This document shows, one piece after another, positions 13,353 through 50,488 of a DNA stretch of 64,000 nucleotides (position 1 is its first letter; the number at the start of each line of letters is the position of its first letter). Both the position numbers and the translations under genes were made by a program. The DNA comes from TPA_inf: Saccharomyces (taxonomy: Eukaryota), in NCBI GenBank assembly GCA_000146045.2, contig BK006942.2, positions 320,001-384,000 of the forward strand, read 5' to 3'. The notes beneath the pieces are model-generated. The model saw nothing but the letters and a program-made list of their open reading frames with translations. It had not been told where the DNA came from and searched no databases.

Positions 13353-13726
13353 GCGAGGTTACTCAGAAACTGTGACTGAAGGCAGAGGTTGGAAACGTGT
13401 GTAGACTCCAAATGGAACGATAGGAACGTGTACCCTACCGCTTCTGCACACGTTTCTTAGATATGCGTGCCTTAAGGCGACCCATTGTTCCTGTTTACCA
13501 TGATTTCTGTAGGCTTTTTTTTAGAAGGCCCTAGAATGGATTGCAGATTTCCGTCTGAGAAGGCAGTATACGTACATATGAATATATATATACATATATT
13601 CTTTGGTGGAGAGTATAAGCGTTTCGTCTCCTCTTCCTTTCTCTACTGCAGATTTTCTTGCTGGTTGTTTGATTTTTTCTTTTTAGTGTTCCCCAGATCC
13701 AATTGTTCAACCGCCCACACACAACA

Positions 13727-14536
13727 ATGTCTTTCACTAAAATCGCTGCCTTATTAGCTGTTGCCGCTGCCTCCACTCAATTGGTTTCTGCTGAAGTTGG
13801 ACAATATGAAATCGTCGAATTTGACGCTATTTTGGCTGATGTCAAGGCCAATTTGGAACAATATATGTCCTTGGCAATGAATAATCCAGACTTTACCCTA
13901 CCATCTGGTGTTTTGGATGTTTACCAACATATGACCACTGCTACTGATGATTCCTACACCAGTTATTTCACCGAAATGGACTTTGCTCAAATCACCACTG
14001 CCATGGTTCAAGTGCCTTGGTACTCTTCTAGACTGGAACCTGAAATCATCGCTGCTTTACAAAGCGCGGGTATCAGTATTACCTCCTTAGGTCAAACCGT
14101 TTCCGAATCTGGTTCCGAATCTGCCACTGCTTCCTCAGACGCTTCTTCTGCTTCTGAATCCTCTTCAGCTGCTTCTTCTTCTGCTTCTGAATCCTCTTCA
14201 GCTGCCTCCTCTTCTGCTTCTGAATCCTCTTCAGCTGCTTCTTCCTCTGCTTCAGAATCTTCTTCTGCTGCCTCCTCTTCTGCTTCTGAAGCTGCTAAGT
14301 CTTCTAGCTCTGCCAAGTCTTCTGGCTCTTCTGCTGCTTCATCTGCTGCTTCATCTGCTTCTTCCAAGGCCTCTTCTGCAGCTTCCTCTTCTGCAAAGGC
14401 CTCCTCTTCTGCAGAAAAATCTACTAATAGCTCCTCCTCTGCTACCTCCAAGAACGCTGGTGCAGCTATGGACATGGGCTTCTTCTCCGCTGGTGTTGGT
14501 GCCGCTATTGCCGGTGCCGCTGCTATGCTCTTATGA
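13727..14536 (+). CDS. TIR3: TIR3, serine/alanine-rich GPI-anchored cell-wall mannoprotein of the Srp1/Tip1 (DAN/TIR) family, anaerobically induced (269 aa)
   Basis: Track start 13703 is TTG. The ATG at 13727 gives MSFTKIAALLAVAAASTQLVSA (signal peptide). A conserved Tip1-family N-domain is followed by SESSSAASSSA tandem repeats and a hydrophobic GPI-signal C-terminus. Confidence 0.85.
   Translation: MSFTKIAALLAVAAASTQLVSAEVGQYEIVEFDAILADVKANLEQYMSLAMNNPDFTLPSGVLDVYQHMTTATDDSYTSYFTEMDFAQITTAMVQVPWYSSRLEPEIIAALQSAGISITSLGQTVSESGSESATASSDASSASESSSAASSSASESSSAASSSASESSSAASSSASESSSAASSSASEAAKSSSSAKSSGSSAASSAASSASSKASSAASSSAKASSSAEKSTNSSSSATSKNAGAAMDMGFFSAGVGAAIAGAAAMLL
14147..14278 (+). repeat. 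Four tandem copies of a 33-bp in-frame repeat (TCTGCTTCTGAATCCTCTTCAGCTGCTTCTTCT, encoding SASESSSAASS) inside TIR3
   Basis: Visible directly as four near-identical consecutive 33-mers with 1-3 substitutions each. Confidence 0.9.
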
Positions 14537-16212: not shown

Positions 16213-16348
16213 TGTTTACTTGTTATCCCGATTTGTACCCAGGATTTACAGCTTTTAATTCATTATCTATGGTCAACTTTTGCTGTCTAGTTTCATATTT
16301 ACTCGCTACCGTTTCACCAACTGTAGTCATCAGTTATGGTAAAAAAAT

Positions 16349-16420
16349 CTCCGCGACGGGGAATTGAACCCCGATCTGGCACGCGACAAGCGCCCATTCT
16401 GACCATTAAACTATCACGGA
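16349..16420 (-). tRNA. tD(GUC): tRNA-Asp (anticodon GUC), second copy, sequence-identical to the copy at 4303..4374
   Basis: Identical 72-nt sequence on the minus strand. An A7/T7 run lies immediately 3' on the minus strand. No LTR is detectable upstream of this copy. Confidence 0.95.
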
Positions 16421-33939: not shown

Positions 33940-35481
33940 ATGGCAGATAAATTAATGGACAAAAATTTTGAAGAACTGTGCTATTCATGCCGCACTGGTG
34001 ATATGGACAATGTTGATAGATTGATTTCCACGGGAGTAAATGTGAATAGTGTTGACAAGTTTGACAATTCGCCACTTTTTCTGGCTAGCCTTTGCGGGCA
34101 TGAAGCAGTCGTGAAACTTCTTCTACAGAGAGGAGCCGTCTGTGATAGAGACAGATATGAAGGAGCTCGATGTATTTATGGAGCATTGACCGATACTATC
34201 AGAGATACCCTTTTAAGTTATGATATATCCAAGGCTGTAGATGTCAAGCAACCCTTTGCTACTCATATCTCATCGATGTATAATGACGAAGGCTTCCTTA
34301 AAAGAGATATCACATTCAGAGTTTCGAATGGAAAACTGTTCACAGCGCATAAGTTCTTATTATGTGCAAGGAGCGAAATTCTAGCAGAAAAAATGGTGAA
34401 TGAGTGGGCAAAGCATGAAATTGTTTCTCTTGAAGTGCGCCCAGATATATTTGACATATTTTTGAAATTTCTTTACTTAATTCCGATCCTGCACCAAATT
34501 GAACCGGGACAATATGAAGAACTTATAGAGCTATCTAGTAAATTTGATATTGAGTTATTGCCCGAATTTTTAGACAAAGCAAGGCATACCGCCGATCCTA
34601 CGGAAAAGTCGAGGTTAATGTCAGATTACCAATATAAGTTTACCGAGGTTGCAAGAAGTCAACTTTTAATATTTGTGAACAATTGTATCTTTAGATCTAC
34701 TGTTGATCTTGCTAATAGTGAACGACGAGTTTTTTCCTTGATGAACTGTCCAGCTTATCCGGATGTTCAACTTATGGTAAAAAACCGAAATGGAGCCATT
34801 CGAATATACCCTTGTCACCTGGCTGTTTTGAGCCGCGCAGAATATTTCAAGGTGATGTTCACAAACAACTTCAAGGAGAAAGTTACATATATCAAAGCCA
34901 AGCACGTTACAGGAAAGTATAATAGTATCATTCCACAGCTGACATTACCCAATTGTGAGTTTGAGGTTGCCGAAATTATTCTCCGCTACTTATATGCAGA
35001 TAATACAGACATTCCTTGGATGTATGCCGTCGATGTTTTGTTACTTGCCGATATACTTTTAGAAGACCGCTTAAAAACTATCGCTTCTACAATTATAACA
35101 CAATCAAAAGAGTTTATTCAGCAATACAATGTTTTTGACGTACTCTATTTATCATGGGAAATAGGAGTGGAACGCTTAGAACAATTTGCAGCTAAATTTA
35201 TAGCTATACATTTGCAAGAGTTATATAAAGATCCAGAGATTAAAAGGGCAATTATGTTGAGTTCACAACGAATTTCTCTCCGCCAGGAAACTGATACTAT
35301 TGAACTAGTGGATGACATTAGGTACTATTTGCTCCGAAAATATTCTTTTGAACCGGATGATGTGGAGCTGTTCGAAAACCAAGACGATTTAGAATACCTA
35401 AAACAAGTAGGGTATTTGGAGTACAGAAAAGATATGGGTATGTTAGATAATATCCTAGCTGATCTGGAACTTGATGTATAA
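33940..35481 (+). CDS. YIL001W: YIL001W, ankyrin-repeat plus tandem BTB/POZ-domain protein of unknown function (513 aa)
   Basis: Track start 33916 is TTG. The ATG at 33940 gives 513 aa. An ankyrin repeat (NSPLFLASLCGHEAVVKLLLQRGA) is followed by BTB-like regions. Confidence 0.7.
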   Translation: MADKLMDKNFEELCYSCRTGDMDNVDRLISTGVNVNSVDKFDNSPLFLASLCGHEAVVKLLLQRGAVCDRDRYEGARCIYGALTDTIRDTLLSYDISKAVDVKQPFATHISSMYNDEGFLKRDITFRVSNGKLFTAHKFLLCARSEILAEKMVNEWAKHEIVSLEVRPDIFDIFLKFLYLIPILHQIEPGQYEELIELSSKFDIELLPEFLDKARHTADPTEKSRLMSDYQYKFTEVARSQLLIFVNNCIFRSTVDLANSERRVFSLMNCPAYPDVQLMVKNRNGAIRIYPCHLAVLSRAEYFKVMFTNNFKEKVTYIKAKHVTGKYNSIIPQLTLPNCEFEVAEIILRYLYADNTDIPWMYAVDVLLLADILLEDRLKTIASTIITQSKEFIQQYNVFDVLYLSWEIGVERLEQFAAKFIAIHLQELYKDPEIKRAIMLSSQRISLRQETDTIELVDDIRYYLLRKYSFEPDDVELFENQDDLEYLKQVGYLEYRKDMGMLDNILADLELDV

Positions 35482-35630
35482 TTCCGCATTCAATAACCTT
35501 ATGTATTTTTACGCGTCACTGCGAACGGATGAATATTGCCAATGACTGCTGCGCACTCTTAAAAAATATAATGACAATTATAATAAGAAGTATGATACTT
35601 TTTCTGTAAAAAATATATATACATATGATT

Positions 35631-35748
35631 CACGTGAAAATTTTTATATTTTTAATTAAATTTTTATAATATTATAAATTATTATAATATTGATATTTAA
35701 AATTAAAAACAAATTATTAATGGTTTTGTTTTCCGAAATGTTTTTTAT
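35631..35748. other. CEN9: Point centromere CEN9. CDEI is TCACGTG (35631..35637). CDEII (~35638..35721) is about 84 bp and >90% A+T. CDEIII (~35722..35748) is GGTTTTGTTTTCCGAAATGTTTTTTAT.
   Basis: The tripartite architecture is seen directly. CDEI is a Cbf1 site (RTCACRTG). CDEII is an AT-only spacer of canonical length. CDEIII contains the invariant CCGAA core in its consensus context TGTTTTG.TTTCCGAAA....AAAA. The flanking genes YIL001W and SGN1 are the arm-boundary genes. Confidence 0.9.
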
Positions 35749-36142
35749 AATTATTACTTCAGAATAGTTATTTTCACGAATACGAGATACAGGGTAATGA
35801 AAACAGGTGTTATCCAAAAAAAAAAATTGATATATTTTAGATACTTTACATACAGAGGCAAGCTTCAGCTGTAGCCAGGTACATAATATTCCCTATAAAG
35901 TGATCAATATTTTTTAACGAAAAATTAAAAAAAAAAATCCTTGAATAAAGGAATGAAAATATTGTAACAAGCGATGACATTTCTTTTTTTGATTGTAGTT
36001 GTGGCATTTTATATTTGCTTTTGCATTTACCCTATTCTTGAAGGTTTGGATAGACAAGCGAGATAACACCAGTTGTCCTTCAACTTATTCAAAGCAGCAG
36101 CTCACTTAATTATTATTAAGTATACACATGAAAGCCTTGTGT

Positions 36143-36895
36143 TTATTTCGAATCTTTTTCTTGGGTAGAACTTTTAACGTTGTCAGACGGCATGACAACA
36201 GGTTTTTGGGAAGTAGATCTAATATTTTTTGTAGAGTCTTTGGCACTGTTGAAGTGTTTTTTTTGGAAGGTTCTATTCTTGTTATTGTAAGGACTCCTAT
36301 AATAATTGTTCTTATTATATCCGAAATTTTGATTTGGAGACTGATTTGGAGGGTACGGTGGGTAATAAGGGAAGGTATCGGGATTGGGGTAGGCCATTAA
36401 GGGATAATTCCATTGCCATTGTTGGAAATACTGGTTTTGCGAGTTGTAATGCCTATTAAATCCTGGAATGTTAGTTCTTTTTCTGGAGACAGCAATTTTT
36501 TTGCCTTTAAGTTCTCCTCCATTTAATTGCAGGGCTTTTTCTCTGTATGCCGGACTTTCAAATTCAATATAGCCGTAGCCTTTTGGTGTTCCCGTATTCC
36601 TATCATAAAGAAGTGTTATTCTTTTTATCTGGCCACAGTCTTTGAAATGATCTTCTATTTGCTCTGGGGTGACATCCGGAGTGATGTTACCGACAAAGAT
36701 AGAACGCGAGTCAGCTTCAAGTTGATGAGCGTGTTTTTCCTCCTTGCTTAGCTTTTGCGACACCTGTGGAGTGCCCTCGATAGATAGTTTACCCACAAGT
36801 TCATCCAGCTCGAGCTCTTGCTTGTCGTTCTTTTTATTGTTCGAAATTTCAGTCTTTAAGGTTGCCTTAGCATCCACTTTCTCTTCCTGGGACAT
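36143..36895 (-). CDS. SGN1: SGN1, cytoplasmic RRM-containing poly(A)+ RNA-binding protein (250 aa)
   Basis: The ATG at the complement of 36893..36895 gives 250 aa ([10 protein letters not shown]...). The RRM has RNP motifs (IFVGNI..., KGYGYIEF). The tail is Tyr/Asn/Pro-rich. Confidence 0.8.
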
Positions 36896-45465: not shown

Positions 45466-48400
45466 TCATGGAAGGGGTGGGGGTGGAGGAATACCTGCAG
45501 GTGGAATTGATGGGATACCTGCAGTAGAAACTGGTTGTGCCCCTTCTTCCTCTTCATCTGTACCAACTGATTCAGGAATCGATAAAACGTCATCATCAGA
45601 ATCGGATCCATATGCGCCCGTGCCTTTTTCAGCACCATTGTAGTTATCAACGTGAGCGATAATAGGTTCTGAAGTGGAAGCTTGTTGAGTTGGTAAAGGT
45701 GGGGGTGGAGGCAAAACGCCTCCAGCTAAAGCTGGGGTGGAAGAACCCGATTTTTGCACGGCAGTAGCTATTGCAGGTGCTGAGGGAATTGGAGGTTCTT
45801 GAAAGCCATCAACAGCAGGCAAAGGGGGAGCCAACGGGACGGGTGGCTCCTGAGTAACAGAAGGTGGTATCGGAGCTATTGGAATAGGACTACTCTTTTC
45901 ATTAGAGGTATTCGCCTGAGGGACAGGGACAGCAGGTGGAACAGGGGTAACAGACGGCAAGGGAGCAGCAGTAACAGGTGGAGCACGTGCATGATCAGGA
46001 TGACCAATCTTTGCTTCTTCAACCTTATTATCTACAGCTACGCGGTTATTACTCTCGTCTTCATCAGACCATCCATCATCCTCGTCCTCATCCAATCCTC
46101 TTTGGATTCTTCTTTGCATTTCTGCAGCGCGAGCATCGAAAGTAGATGTAGAGCTAGCTGATGCATCCTTGAAGTATGGATTATGGCCCATTGTCGTGGA
46201 AGGCAGACCAGTACTGTTCTTACCTGCGGCAGGGGTAACAGCAGCGTGTACCGAGCGAGGAGCATTAGTAGAATTTTGCGAAAAAGCTGCAGATGGTGCC
46301 ACTGGAGCGGCCTGAGGAACGTTCACATGGCCGCCAAAGTTGTCTTTTCCGTTTGTCTCCTCTTCGTCACTTTCATTTTGAGCATCCTCAATTTGCTTAC
46401 GTAAAGCTGCAAGTCTTTTTTCTTTATCAGCCTTTTTTTTAAGTTTCAATCGTTTTAGCTCCTCTTGTAAACGCTTTTCTTCATCATCTTCATCTTCATC
46501 ATCGGATTCTTGCTTTGCATTATATACATTCTGAACAGGTTGAGTTGGTTGAACAGGTTGAGTTGGCTGAACAGGTTGAGTTGGCTGAACAGGTTGAGTT
46601 GGCTGAACAGGTTGAGTTGGTTGAACAGGTTGTGTTGATTGAACAGGTTGAGTTGGTTGAGCGACTTCCACATATTTTTCTTCTTGGAATGGAGTTGCTC
46701 TAGGTTCAACTAAATTGGAAGAACCAGCAATCTGTTGTGGCTGTTCTCGAGAGTTTTCACTGCTAATCGATCTGGAACTTTGAGTAACATTTCGCCTATT
46801 CTTATCAAATTTAGCTAATTTTTCCTTCATTCTCTTTTTTGCCTGTTCTTTCAGATAAGCTGCTCTTTCTTCAGCAGTTTTGAACTGAGAATAAGAAGGC
46901 GACGAGGAACGGTCATCTACAGGGGTTGGTGTTGAGGAAGGCACAAAGGGAGATGACTCAGTCACTGATTTATTTGAATTTGACTTCAGATCATCCAAAA
47001 ATTCACGAACACCATCTTCTAACCCTATGCCAAATTCCCATCTTTCAAATTCTTGATTGGATATCATATTCGATCCTGTCATAGTAGACTTCAAGGATGC
47101 AGAAATATCTGATATAGATGACCTTATGTCTTTAATGATTTCTTGGTTCTTACCATTTTCCTGCTGGATTCTCTTGATTTCAGCACTTTGCTGTTCATCT
47201 TCCATGGAAAGTGAATCCTCCGATTCCGTTGATTTTCCTGTTAGAGCAGACATCCTTGCTCTCAACAAAGCCCTACTCTTAGCTTTCTTCCTATCATTTT
47301 CAGTTATTTCACCATTTGGACCAGATCCAATTATCGAAGAAGGATTTTTTTTTCTATACAACTGAATTTTTGCATTGGTAATCTCATTATCAATTGTAGA
47401 AATTTCATTGAATAGGTTTGGAAGTTTGGCGATGATGGCATCAAAGCGGCTTGTCAAATCTGATGGAATAGAACTGTCATAACAGTTTTCAGGATTGCTG
47501 ATATTTTTGATCTCATTTTCCAGTGAAGCAATATTTTTCAGATTTATTTCTCTTGAAAACCCAGCATATTTTGGTTTCGCTGTCTTCTTTTCAACAGTCT
47601 TATCTACCGAAATGTCATCGGTTTGAAGGGTGCTGCTAGAATGATTAACAGATTTAGCAGATGGTGAAGAAAAAGAAGATTGCTCTTCATTTTTCGCAGA
47701 GTAAACCTTCCTACGATTTCTATAGTTCGGCAAAACATCATCATCATTATTTTTGTAGCTCAAGGCATCGATTTTACCAAACGAAGGTTTTTCTTTTGTG
47801 GTCGTTGGCTCTGTCTTTAATTGGTTCTTTAAGTTGTCTAAAAGTTTTGTGCTGGAGGGAATTAAACTTGAAGGTAGGACATTGGGGATTGGCTTCCCGT
47901 TTAATTTACCGTAAACCAAGTGCATACCTAGTGCAAATTCTTGTTTATTCAATTGGCCGGTGTTGTTTATATCACAAAGGTTCCAAATTTGCTCCAAATC
48001 TGCACGATTTAAGCCAGATTTTCTAAAAATCTCCACAGCAGTGGGGGAATCTAACAAACCTTTGTTTTGAGTATCAAAAGTTTCAAAAATTTTATAAAAC
48101 AAAGATTTTTCCTCCGTGGAAATTTTGTCTTGACTTGAGTTATCAATTAAGTTATTATTAAAGTTGGATTTGGTATAAATTTCGTTATTACCAAATCCTG
48201 TCTTTTGGGCAGTCAACGGCATGGTAGCACTAAAGTTAGATGGTGGTAGAAAACCCGTTGGTTGGGGTTGCAACCCGGTTAACTGAGATTGTAATCCTTG
48301 TTGATTAAAGGACAAATTGGGCATACTTGCAGGACCGCTTTGCTGGGGCATAACGGAACCATATCCTCCGGTATACTGAGATTGCAAAGCACCGCCGGTC

Positions 48401-49908
48401 AACTGAGGTCCTAAATTAACGCCAAATGAAGTCTGTGGCATCATACCAGTTGTCTGTGGCATCATACCAGTTGTCTGTGGCATCATACCAGTTGTCTGAG
48501 GTTGCAAAGCATTGCCAGTAATGTTGGGTTGCATAGAGGCAGGTGCTCCTCCAGTAATTTGGGGGTTCAATCCGGGAGTTCCGGTATTCATTGACATGTT
48601 GAAAGTGGTTGGTGCCATAAATCCTGTGGATTGAGGATTCAACGCCGAGGCAACACCGCCTCCAGTAATTTGAGACTGTAATGGGATACCAAAACTAGTT
48701 TGAGGCATATATCCTGTTGGTTGAGGTTGCAAATTTTGTACGCCCGCTGTAATGAATTCATCAAAGGGAGTTTTTGGGGCATCGTTTGCGGAAGAATCCT
48801 GGTTTGCAATGCTTAAATTAATGGCGTCAATAAAACTTGAAACTTCGTTTTTTGTCTTAGAATCCAATTCGTAAGGGATAGTGTCACCTTGTAAGACATC
48901 ATTGATCAAATGCATTGCTAATGCAAATTCAGGAAACAGTAACTCACCTGCTTTTGATGTATCACAAAGCGTCCAAATTCTTGCGAGTTGAGAAGGTGGC
49001 AAACCGGATCTCATCAAAATTTTCCTACAATTAGCACCGGAAACAGTATTCGAACCATTGGTAACAATTGATCTGAATAGAGTCTCAAATTTTGCCTGAT
49101 CTTGGGCAGTAATAAACGACAATCTAATGGCAGGGATTTTGATATCATTGTTTAGACCGTTGTTGGCAAATGAGTTGACAAAGCCAGTTGCGGTGGGCTT
49201 TAATGGTTCTAAGGGAGCTTGGTTTTGCGGTTGAAGGTAAAATCCTGTTTGCTGCGGCTTCAAAGGTTGCAAGGACTGTGCTTGCTGAGGAGGTGGCACC
49301 TGTTGAGGTTGAGATTGATAATAACCAGTGCCCTGGGCCTGAAGGGGCTGCTGGGTTTGATTAGAAGAGATCAAATTGGGTGTAGACACATAATATCCTG
49401 TCCCTTGAGATTGCAAAGGTTGTACTGAGTGTACATTTGCAGTATTAGCAGCTTGGTAATAGCCTGTTCCTTGGGGTTGTATGGATTGTAGCTGAGGCTG
49501 TTGAGCCGGATTAGGTGGAGGCATGGTGCCAGTAGTATTCATCATAGGCATACTGGAATTTGGTACGTATCCCGTATGCTGCGGTTTCGCCTGCTGTTGT
49601 TGCTGCTGGGGTTGTTGGCCAAAATTACCATTACCATATACACTACCATTATTTCCATTATTATTGTAACCCGTTTGGGGCTGCTGTGGCATACTTGAGA
49701 AAGAATTACCAAAACTTTGAGGCATCCCACCAATTCCGGTAGCCTGAGGCTGGTTAAACGCCATTTGCTGTTGTGGTTGAGGCTGGCCTTGGGGCTGGTT
49801 TGAAGACTGACCTTGCTGCTGCTGCGGGTAGAATCCATTTGGTTGTTGCTGCTGTTGCTGCTGTTGCTGCTGGTAACCCATGCCCTGTTGCTGGTACGGG
49901 TTATACAT
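45466..49908 (-). CDS. PAN1: PAN1, endocytic scaffold with two EH domains and an Arp2/3-activating acidic C-terminus (1480 aa)
   Basis: 1480-aa ORF. The N-terminus is Gln-rich (poly-Q, QPQ). It has long-repeat (LR1/LR2) regions with TGF/TGY motifs, two EH domains ([13 protein letters not shown]..., [13 protein letters not shown]...) and a Pro-rich C-terminus. Internal QPTQPV and TGMMPQT tandem repeats are present. Confidence 0.9.
46533..46658 (-). repeat. Seven tandem copies of an 18-bp in-frame repeat (plus strand GAACAGGTTGAGTTGGCT, encoding QPTQPV on the PAN1 strand)
   Basis: Seven consecutive near-identical 18-mers seen directly. They generate the spurious antisense EQVELA and QLNLFS ORFs in the track. 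Confidence 0.9.
48431..48493 (-). repeat. Three tandem copies of a 21-bp in-frame repeat (GTCTGTGGCATCATACCAGTT, encoding TGMMPQT in PAN1)
   Basis: Three perfect consecutive 21-mers. Confidence 0.9.
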
Positions 49909-50416: not shown

Positions 50417-50488
50417 TCCGATATAGTGTAACGGCTATCACATCACGCTTTCACCGTGGAGACCGGGGTTCGACTCCCCGTATCGGAG
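50417..50488 (+). tRNA. tE(UUC): tRNA-Glu (anticodon UUC)
   Basis: TCCGATATAGTGTAACGGCTATCACATCACGCTTTCACCGTGGAGACCGGGGTTCGACTCCCCGTATCGGAG with box B GGTTCGACTCC. A T-rich terminator follows about 15 nt downstream. Confidence 0.95.

Follow-up and report, generated by a model that had tools for sequence, protein, structure and literature searches.

Does the A+T-rich DNA between YIL001W and SGN1 contain a point centromere with the tripartite CDEI–CDEII–CDEIII organization, as the original prediction proposed from the sequence alone, or is it generic intergenic DNA? Here we identify positions 35629–35746 of the window (the entire 64-kb stretch of DNA that was analysed) as the chromosome IX centromere of Saccharomyces cerevisiae, CEN9, a genetically defined point centromere, and regard this assignment as very nearly certain. 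CEN9 is already known and annotated, and its recognition here adds no new biology. The predicted point centromere is borne out by an exact match to the published CEN9, by the presence of the sequence features that define this type of centromere, and by conserved position, orientation and architecture.

Architecture and identity of the element

The element is composed of three parts in the order CDEI–CDEII–CDEIII, all on the + strand. CDEI (TTCACGTG; 35629–35636) contains the E-box CACGTG, the site of the Cbf1 bHLH dimer, and constitutes the first 8 bp of the published sequence, Scer_CEN9. The TCACGTG Cbf1 site named in the original prediction is present at 35630–35636; the conventional 8-bp CDEI is one base longer and begins at 35629. 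CDEII (35637–35720), the spacer on which the Cse4 (CENP-A) nucleosome sits, had been put at 84 bp with more than 90% A+T. It is exactly 84 bp long and 97.6% A+T (82 of 84 bases), and is rich in A/T homopolymer runs. CDEIII, the site of the CBF3 complex, extends over 26 bp (35721–35746; TGGTTTTGTTTTCCGAAATGTTTTTT) as delimited by Gordon et al., or over 25 bp (35721–35745; TGGTTTTGTTTTCCGAAATGTTTTT) by an older convention, the next base being the T at 35746. The CCGAA on which CDEIII had been centred lies within the 25-bp sequence at 35733–35737, corresponding to CDEIII positions 13–17, and the G's that are invariant in S. cerevisiae are present at positions 2 and 8. A mismatch in the essential CCG had been named in advance as evidence against a centromere; the CCG is intact, at 35733–35735.

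The total length is 117 bp with the 25-bp CDEIII and 118 bp with the 26-bp CDEIII of Gordon et al. 2011. Order, orientation and length (about 111–121 bp) are those of a point centromere. The size originally given, roughly 118 bp, was therefore right, whereas its placement at 35631–35748 was 2–3 bp off at each end (the actual limits being 35629 and 35745 or 35746).

Two open reading frames outside the centromere provide its immediate context. YIL001W (33940–35481, + strand; 513 amino acids, a BTB/ankyrin protein) has a stop codon that ends 147 bp before CDEI, and the stop codon of SGN1 (36143–36895, − strand; 250 amino acids, an RRM protein) lies 396 bp beyond CDEIII. Both genes are transcribed towards the centromere, and the region between this convergent pair is 3′-to-3′. 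The predicted location between YIL001W and SGN1 is secure, since both products are identical to the S288C proteins (NP_012265.3 and NP_012266.1, respectively). The same applies to the next gene on either side: the proteins from the four open reading frames around the element are identical to those of S288C INP51 (NP_012264.3), YIL001W, SGN1 and MPH1 (NP_012267.1), and the window is therefore from S. cerevisiae chromosome IX.

As a reference for the centromere itself we used Scer_CEN9 (118 bp) from Table S2 of Gordon, Byrne and Wolfe 2011 (PMC3141009). This sequence occurs once in the window, at 35629–35746, with 118 of 118 positions identical. Its published coordinates, 355626..355743 on an older chromosome IX release, correspond to those window positions, its neighbouring genes are the same, and we found no difference between the two: they are the same object. 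CEN9 is also listed in the '+' orientation (Table 1, PMC3141009). Identity of sequence is thus combined with the location specific to CEN9, between YIL001W and YIR001C (SGN1) on chromosome IX.

Rfam and tRNA scans returned no match at the element and only four tRNA genes, all elsewhere in the window, and a window-wide repeat search returned no repeat involving CEN9. Two of the tRNA genes, both tRNA-Asp(GTC), form an 85-nt repeat that is 99% identical (4290–4374 and 16336–16420, 12 kb apart) and takes in 12–13 bp of flank; tRNA-Thr(AGT) and tRNA-Glu(TTC) genes are also present (coordinates listed: 5748–5820, 50417–50488). In-frame tandem repeats occur at 14113–14419, in an open reading frame on the + strand (13703–14536), where the sequence is TCT/GCT-rich and the best-matching copies are spaced 33 nt apart, and at 46513–46678, with an 18-nt period, in a 1480-amino-acid open reading frame on the − strand (45466–49908).

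CEN9 compared with the window and with the other centromeres

Single short motifs cannot carry the argument for a centromere. The window has 3 copies of TCACGTG where 3.5 are expected and 3 matches to TGNTTTCCGAAA with one mismatch where 2.05 are expected, so that neither motif by itself rises above chance. The combination of motifs, by contrast, is unique: there is a single TCACRTG-N70-100-TTCCGAA in the window, whereas shuffles predict 0.04. Comparison with CEN1–CEN16, proposed at the outset as a check, gave the same answer. A CDEIII matrix built from the 15 other published S. cerevisiae centromeres, with CEN9 left out (Table S2, PMC3141009), picks out 35721–35746 with a score of 19.6 bits, and the runner-up on both strands of the 64 kb (128 kb in all) reaches 5.6 bits. 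No 84-bp stretch in the 64 kb is richer in A+T than CDEII, which marks the only block of such stretches with at least 88% A+T.

The family of point centromeres is defined by a CDEI of the form NNCAVBTG, an invariant CCGAA in CDEIII and a CDEII of 76–98% A+T, to which S. cerevisiae adds a G at CDEIII positions 2 and 8 (PMC3141009). All the sequence features of a Saccharomycetaceae point centromere are found at 35629–35746. Its CDEI fits NNCAVBTG and departs from the S. cerevisiae form RTCACRTG at position 1. Its CDEII, at 84 bp and 97.6% A+T, falls within the span of the 16 published centromeres (78–87 bp, 86.0–97.6%), and its CDEIII, of about 25–26 bp, has G2, G8 and CCGAA at positions 13–17. 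The other 15 S. cerevisiae centromeres share the CDEI–CDEII–CDEIII order, have total lengths of 112–121 bp and, like CEN9, keep the CCGAA and G2/G8 of CDEIII invariant. CEN9 differs from them in having a T at CDEI position 1 (A or G in the other 15), the highest CDEII A+T content of the 16 (86.0–95.3% in the other 15) and a T-run at CDEIII positions 22–26, where an A-rich tail is usual. A/T runs of at least 4 hold one third of the CDEII bases, which is within the range of the other 15.

Leave-one-out scoring of all 16 centromeres localizes these departures. The CDEIII core of CEN9 (positions 1–18) scores 26.2 bits and ranks fourth, after CEN2, CEN3 and CEN10. Positions 19–26 (TGTTTTTT; 35739–35746) score −6.6 bits, the lowest of the 16, and the whole CDEIII, at 19.6 bits, is also the lowest, with CEN8, CEN4 and CEN13 within 1 bit of it. 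This low score arises because the T-run replaces the usual A-rich tail; the deficit lies entirely in positions 19–26. The distal A-run is likewise missing from the orthologous CEN9 in the five other Saccharomyces species compared. The CDEI score is reduced to 8.4 bits by the T at position 1, and only that of CEN2 (ATCATGTG) is lower.

Conservation within Saccharomyces and deeper ancestry

Orthologous loci were located by searching with YIL001W and retrieving the contigs that encode it, in S. eubayanus (L001), S. mikatae (L002), S. arboricola (L003), S. kudriavzevii (L004) and S. uvarum (L005). All five have a three-part element between the orthologues of YIL001W and SGN1, in the same orientation. 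CACGTG and TG.TTT....TTCCGAA are invariant in the six Saccharomyces species, CDEII is 84–86 bp long in all of them, and the total length is 117–119 bp in the other five. The CDEII of these five orthologues is 81–93% A+T, lower than in S. cerevisiae CEN9, and there is variation at CDEI positions 1 and 2 and in the distal part of CDEIII.

Outside the invariant cores, little alignable sequence is left. Mean pairwise identity among the six species is 0.87 for CDEI and 0.74 for CDEIII; the CDEII value, 0.68, cannot be told apart from that of mononucleotide shuffles (0.67 ± 0.04), and the 100-bp flanks also align at shuffle level. Between S. eubayanus and S. uvarum, the closest pair, identity is 74–76% in the flanks but only 62% in CDEII. 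This pattern fits the published description of Saccharomyces centromere evolution, in which the binding sites are conserved and CDEII is fast-evolving and kept in length and composition only (Bensasson 2011, PMC3155921). The six-species comparison used motif-anchored extraction in place of MAFFT. Saturation of CDEII and the flanks led MAFFT, run on the whole intergenic region, to misplace CDEI in two of the species, S. mikatae and S. kudriavzevii.

The published Sbay_CEN9 (Gordon et al. 2011) has 94 of 119 columns identical to the S. uvarum element (L005:3670–3788) and 84 of 119 to that of S. eubayanus (L001:3663–3780). Its CDEIII is identical to that of S. eubayanus and its CDEII aligns better to S. 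uvarum. Judged from the alignments, this mismatch would be consistent with fast turnover of CDEII or with mixed strain ancestry.

Within S. cerevisiae, we compared nine other assemblies that encode an identical YIL001W protein, a sample that is small and made up of close relatives. Eight of the nine have the same CDEI and CDEIII as the window, and the only CDEII difference in those eight is an A/G single-nucleotide polymorphism at 35716. Raised CDEII diversity was looked for in this sample, which, with its one polymorphism, is too small and too closely related to say anything on that point. An A11 tract at 35816–35826, 70 bp beyond CDEIII, ranges from 8 to 11 A among the nine. One assembly (L016:3189–3318; GCA_000568005.1, CM002412.1) has a CEN9 CDEII of 96 bp, outside the S. 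cerevisiae range of 78–87 bp, with a 10-bp near-tandem duplication and two 1-bp insertions; another 10-bp duplication lies about 100 bp downstream. The 96-bp CDEII is probably an assembly error, not biology.

Positional conservation extends to three more distant genera. In Vanderwaltozyma polyspora, Zygosaccharomyces rouxii and Lachancea thermotolerans, the gene order is the YIL001W orthologue, a TRAP_alpha (IRC22-like) gene (L006:6755–7441, L007:6589–7347 and L008:6603–7268, respectively), the centromere and an SGN1-like RRM gene. The published Kpol_CEN499 and Zrou_CEN4 (both exact matches) and Kthe_CEN6 (106 of 127 bases, from a different assembly) lie at the orthologous locus in the same orientation. 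NOP16 follows the SGN1-like gene in these three species. The IRC22-like gene and NOP16 are both absent at the S. cerevisiae chromosome IX locus, as is expected if, following the whole-genome duplication, they were kept on chromosome V, in the sister copy of the locus.

These positional data agree with the assignment of Ancestral CEN7 as the origin of S. cerevisiae CEN5+ and CEN9+ (Table 1, PMC3141009). Relatives that predate the duplication have one centromere at this place, flanked by the IRC22-like and SGN1-like genes. CEN5, the sister copy of CEN9 from the whole-genome duplication, shares this origin, yet the two have no recognizable CDEII sequence in common. Their CDEIII elements begin AGTATTAG... 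in CEN5 and TGGTTTTG... in CEN9, and the flanking genes have been partitioned between chromosomes V and IX.

Function and alternative readings

The mechanism of point centromeres is established in the literature, and the exact identity of sequence suggests that it extends to the copy in the window. A Cbf1 bHLH dimer would bind the CACGTG of CDEI (PMC10381965, PMC7979930), and the CBF3 complex (Ndc10, a Cep3 dimer, Ctf13 and Skp1) would bind CDEIII, where the Gal4-type zinc-cluster domain of one Cep3 is expected to read the essential CCG (PMC10381965, PMC7979930). Through Ndc10 and the chaperone Scm3, CBF3 would then direct deposition of Cse4–H4 onto CDEII. The predicted outcome is a single Cse4 (CENP-A) nucleosome on the 84-bp CDEII, flanked by two CCAN modules (PMC10381965, PMC7979930); the CCAN modules and the outer kinetochore would assemble on this nucleosome and capture one microtubule. 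CDEIII with CBF3 and, more weakly, CDEI with Cbf1 may also block incoming transcription (PMC9371891). That paper makes no CEN9-specific statement; we consider such a roadblock plausibly relevant here because YIL001W and SGN1 both converge on the element.

Published measurements bear on CEN9 directly. The original prediction had taken absence of Cse4 enrichment as grounds for rejecting it; Cse4 MNase ChIP-seq instead gave peaks at all sixteen centromeres (PMC4794243, Hildebrand and Biggins 2016). The same study reports 17 wild-type Cse4 peaks, the extra one being 150 bp from CEN9, on a side and for a cause not stated in its main text. In extract, the median dwell time of Cse4 is 78 s on a CEN9 template, similar to the 82 s on CEN3 and 74 s on CEN7 (PMC10476280), and fun30 mutants show a change in the nuclease-protected centromeric particle found at CEN9 (PMC3459985). 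Functional characterization of all S. cerevisiae centromeres is stated in PMC3141009 (citing Hieter et al. 1985 and Fleig et al. 1995). Loss of function on changing CCG to AGC was shown for CEN3 (PMC10381965); no CEN9-specific plasmid assay was found in the cited centromere literature.

Could the motifs have come together by chance? The element would then be generic A+T-rich terminator or 3′-UTR DNA with a stray Cbf1 E-box and CCGAA and no centromere function, and the unremarkable counts of each motif, together with the general A+T-richness of yeast 3′ intergenic regions, fit such a view. However, a correctly spaced motif pair should turn up far less than once in the window by chance, the full CDEIII matrix leaves a gap of 14 bits to the next site, and no 84-bp stretch in the rest of the window attains the 88% A+T level. 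Furthermore, the invariant islands in six species stand amid flanks that align no better than shuffled sequence, the sequence is that of the published CEN9, and Cse4 occupies every centromere in the ChIP-seq data. A chance origin, which we consider vanishingly improbable, is already refuted by the conservation pattern and the published Cse4 occupancy. Reading the CACGTG as a site through which Cbf1 regulates transcription of an adjacent gene, as it does at the promoters of MET genes, and not as part of a centromere has an equally minute probability. Cbf1 is both a transcription factor and a centromere protein (PMC9371891) and CACGTG is its core site, but YIL001W (+, ending at 35481) and SGN1 (−, ending at 36143) both terminate here. 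Because both neighbours end, and do not start, in the spacer, it holds no promoter; moreover, the site is coupled at a fixed 84–86 bp to a CBF3 site in all six species.

A further possibility is that the A+T-rich core is, or doubles as, a replication origin (ARS). A perfect 11-bp match to WTTTAYRTTTW (TTTTATATTTT; 35642–35652), one of six such matches in the 64 kb, lies within CDEII. Yeast origins require an ACS match of this kind, but the match by itself falls far short of conferring origin activity. Only 5 of the 16 published centromeres have one and the remaining 11 work in its absence, so that it is not characteristic of centromeres. A match is unsurprising at 86–98% A+T, and this one is not conserved in the CDEII sequences of the five other Saccharomyces species. 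Centromere plasmids also need a separate ARS, as in the ARS1-TRP1-CEN3 minichromosome (PMC10381965). An origin reading is thus very improbable, and the ACS in the CEN9 CDEII is probably a by-product of composition.

With the element taken as CEN9, it may be asked whether its departures from the other centromeres have a function. CEN9 might be a functionally distinct sub-variant in which the T at CDEI position 1, the A+T-richest CDEII, the distal T-run and the extra Cse4 peak are connected, although we think this unlikely. If it were so, the placement of CBF3/Ndc10, or of an adjacent particle containing Cse4, could differ at CEN9 from that at other centromeres, and chromosome IX might be lost at a different rate or have a wider centromeric footprint. 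A link between the sequence oddities and the extra peak would, in our view, be unlikely to matter much, and the CDEI position 1 and distal CDEIII differences are minor peculiarities of a clear family member.

For a genome scan, CEN9 thus serves as a positive control: a 117-bp functional element was recognized from raw sequence and then verified in three ways, through its exact agreement with the published sequence, through a matrix built without CEN9 and through comparative genomics. For the yeast itself, it is a textbook genetically defined centromere, essential for the segregation of chromosome IX.
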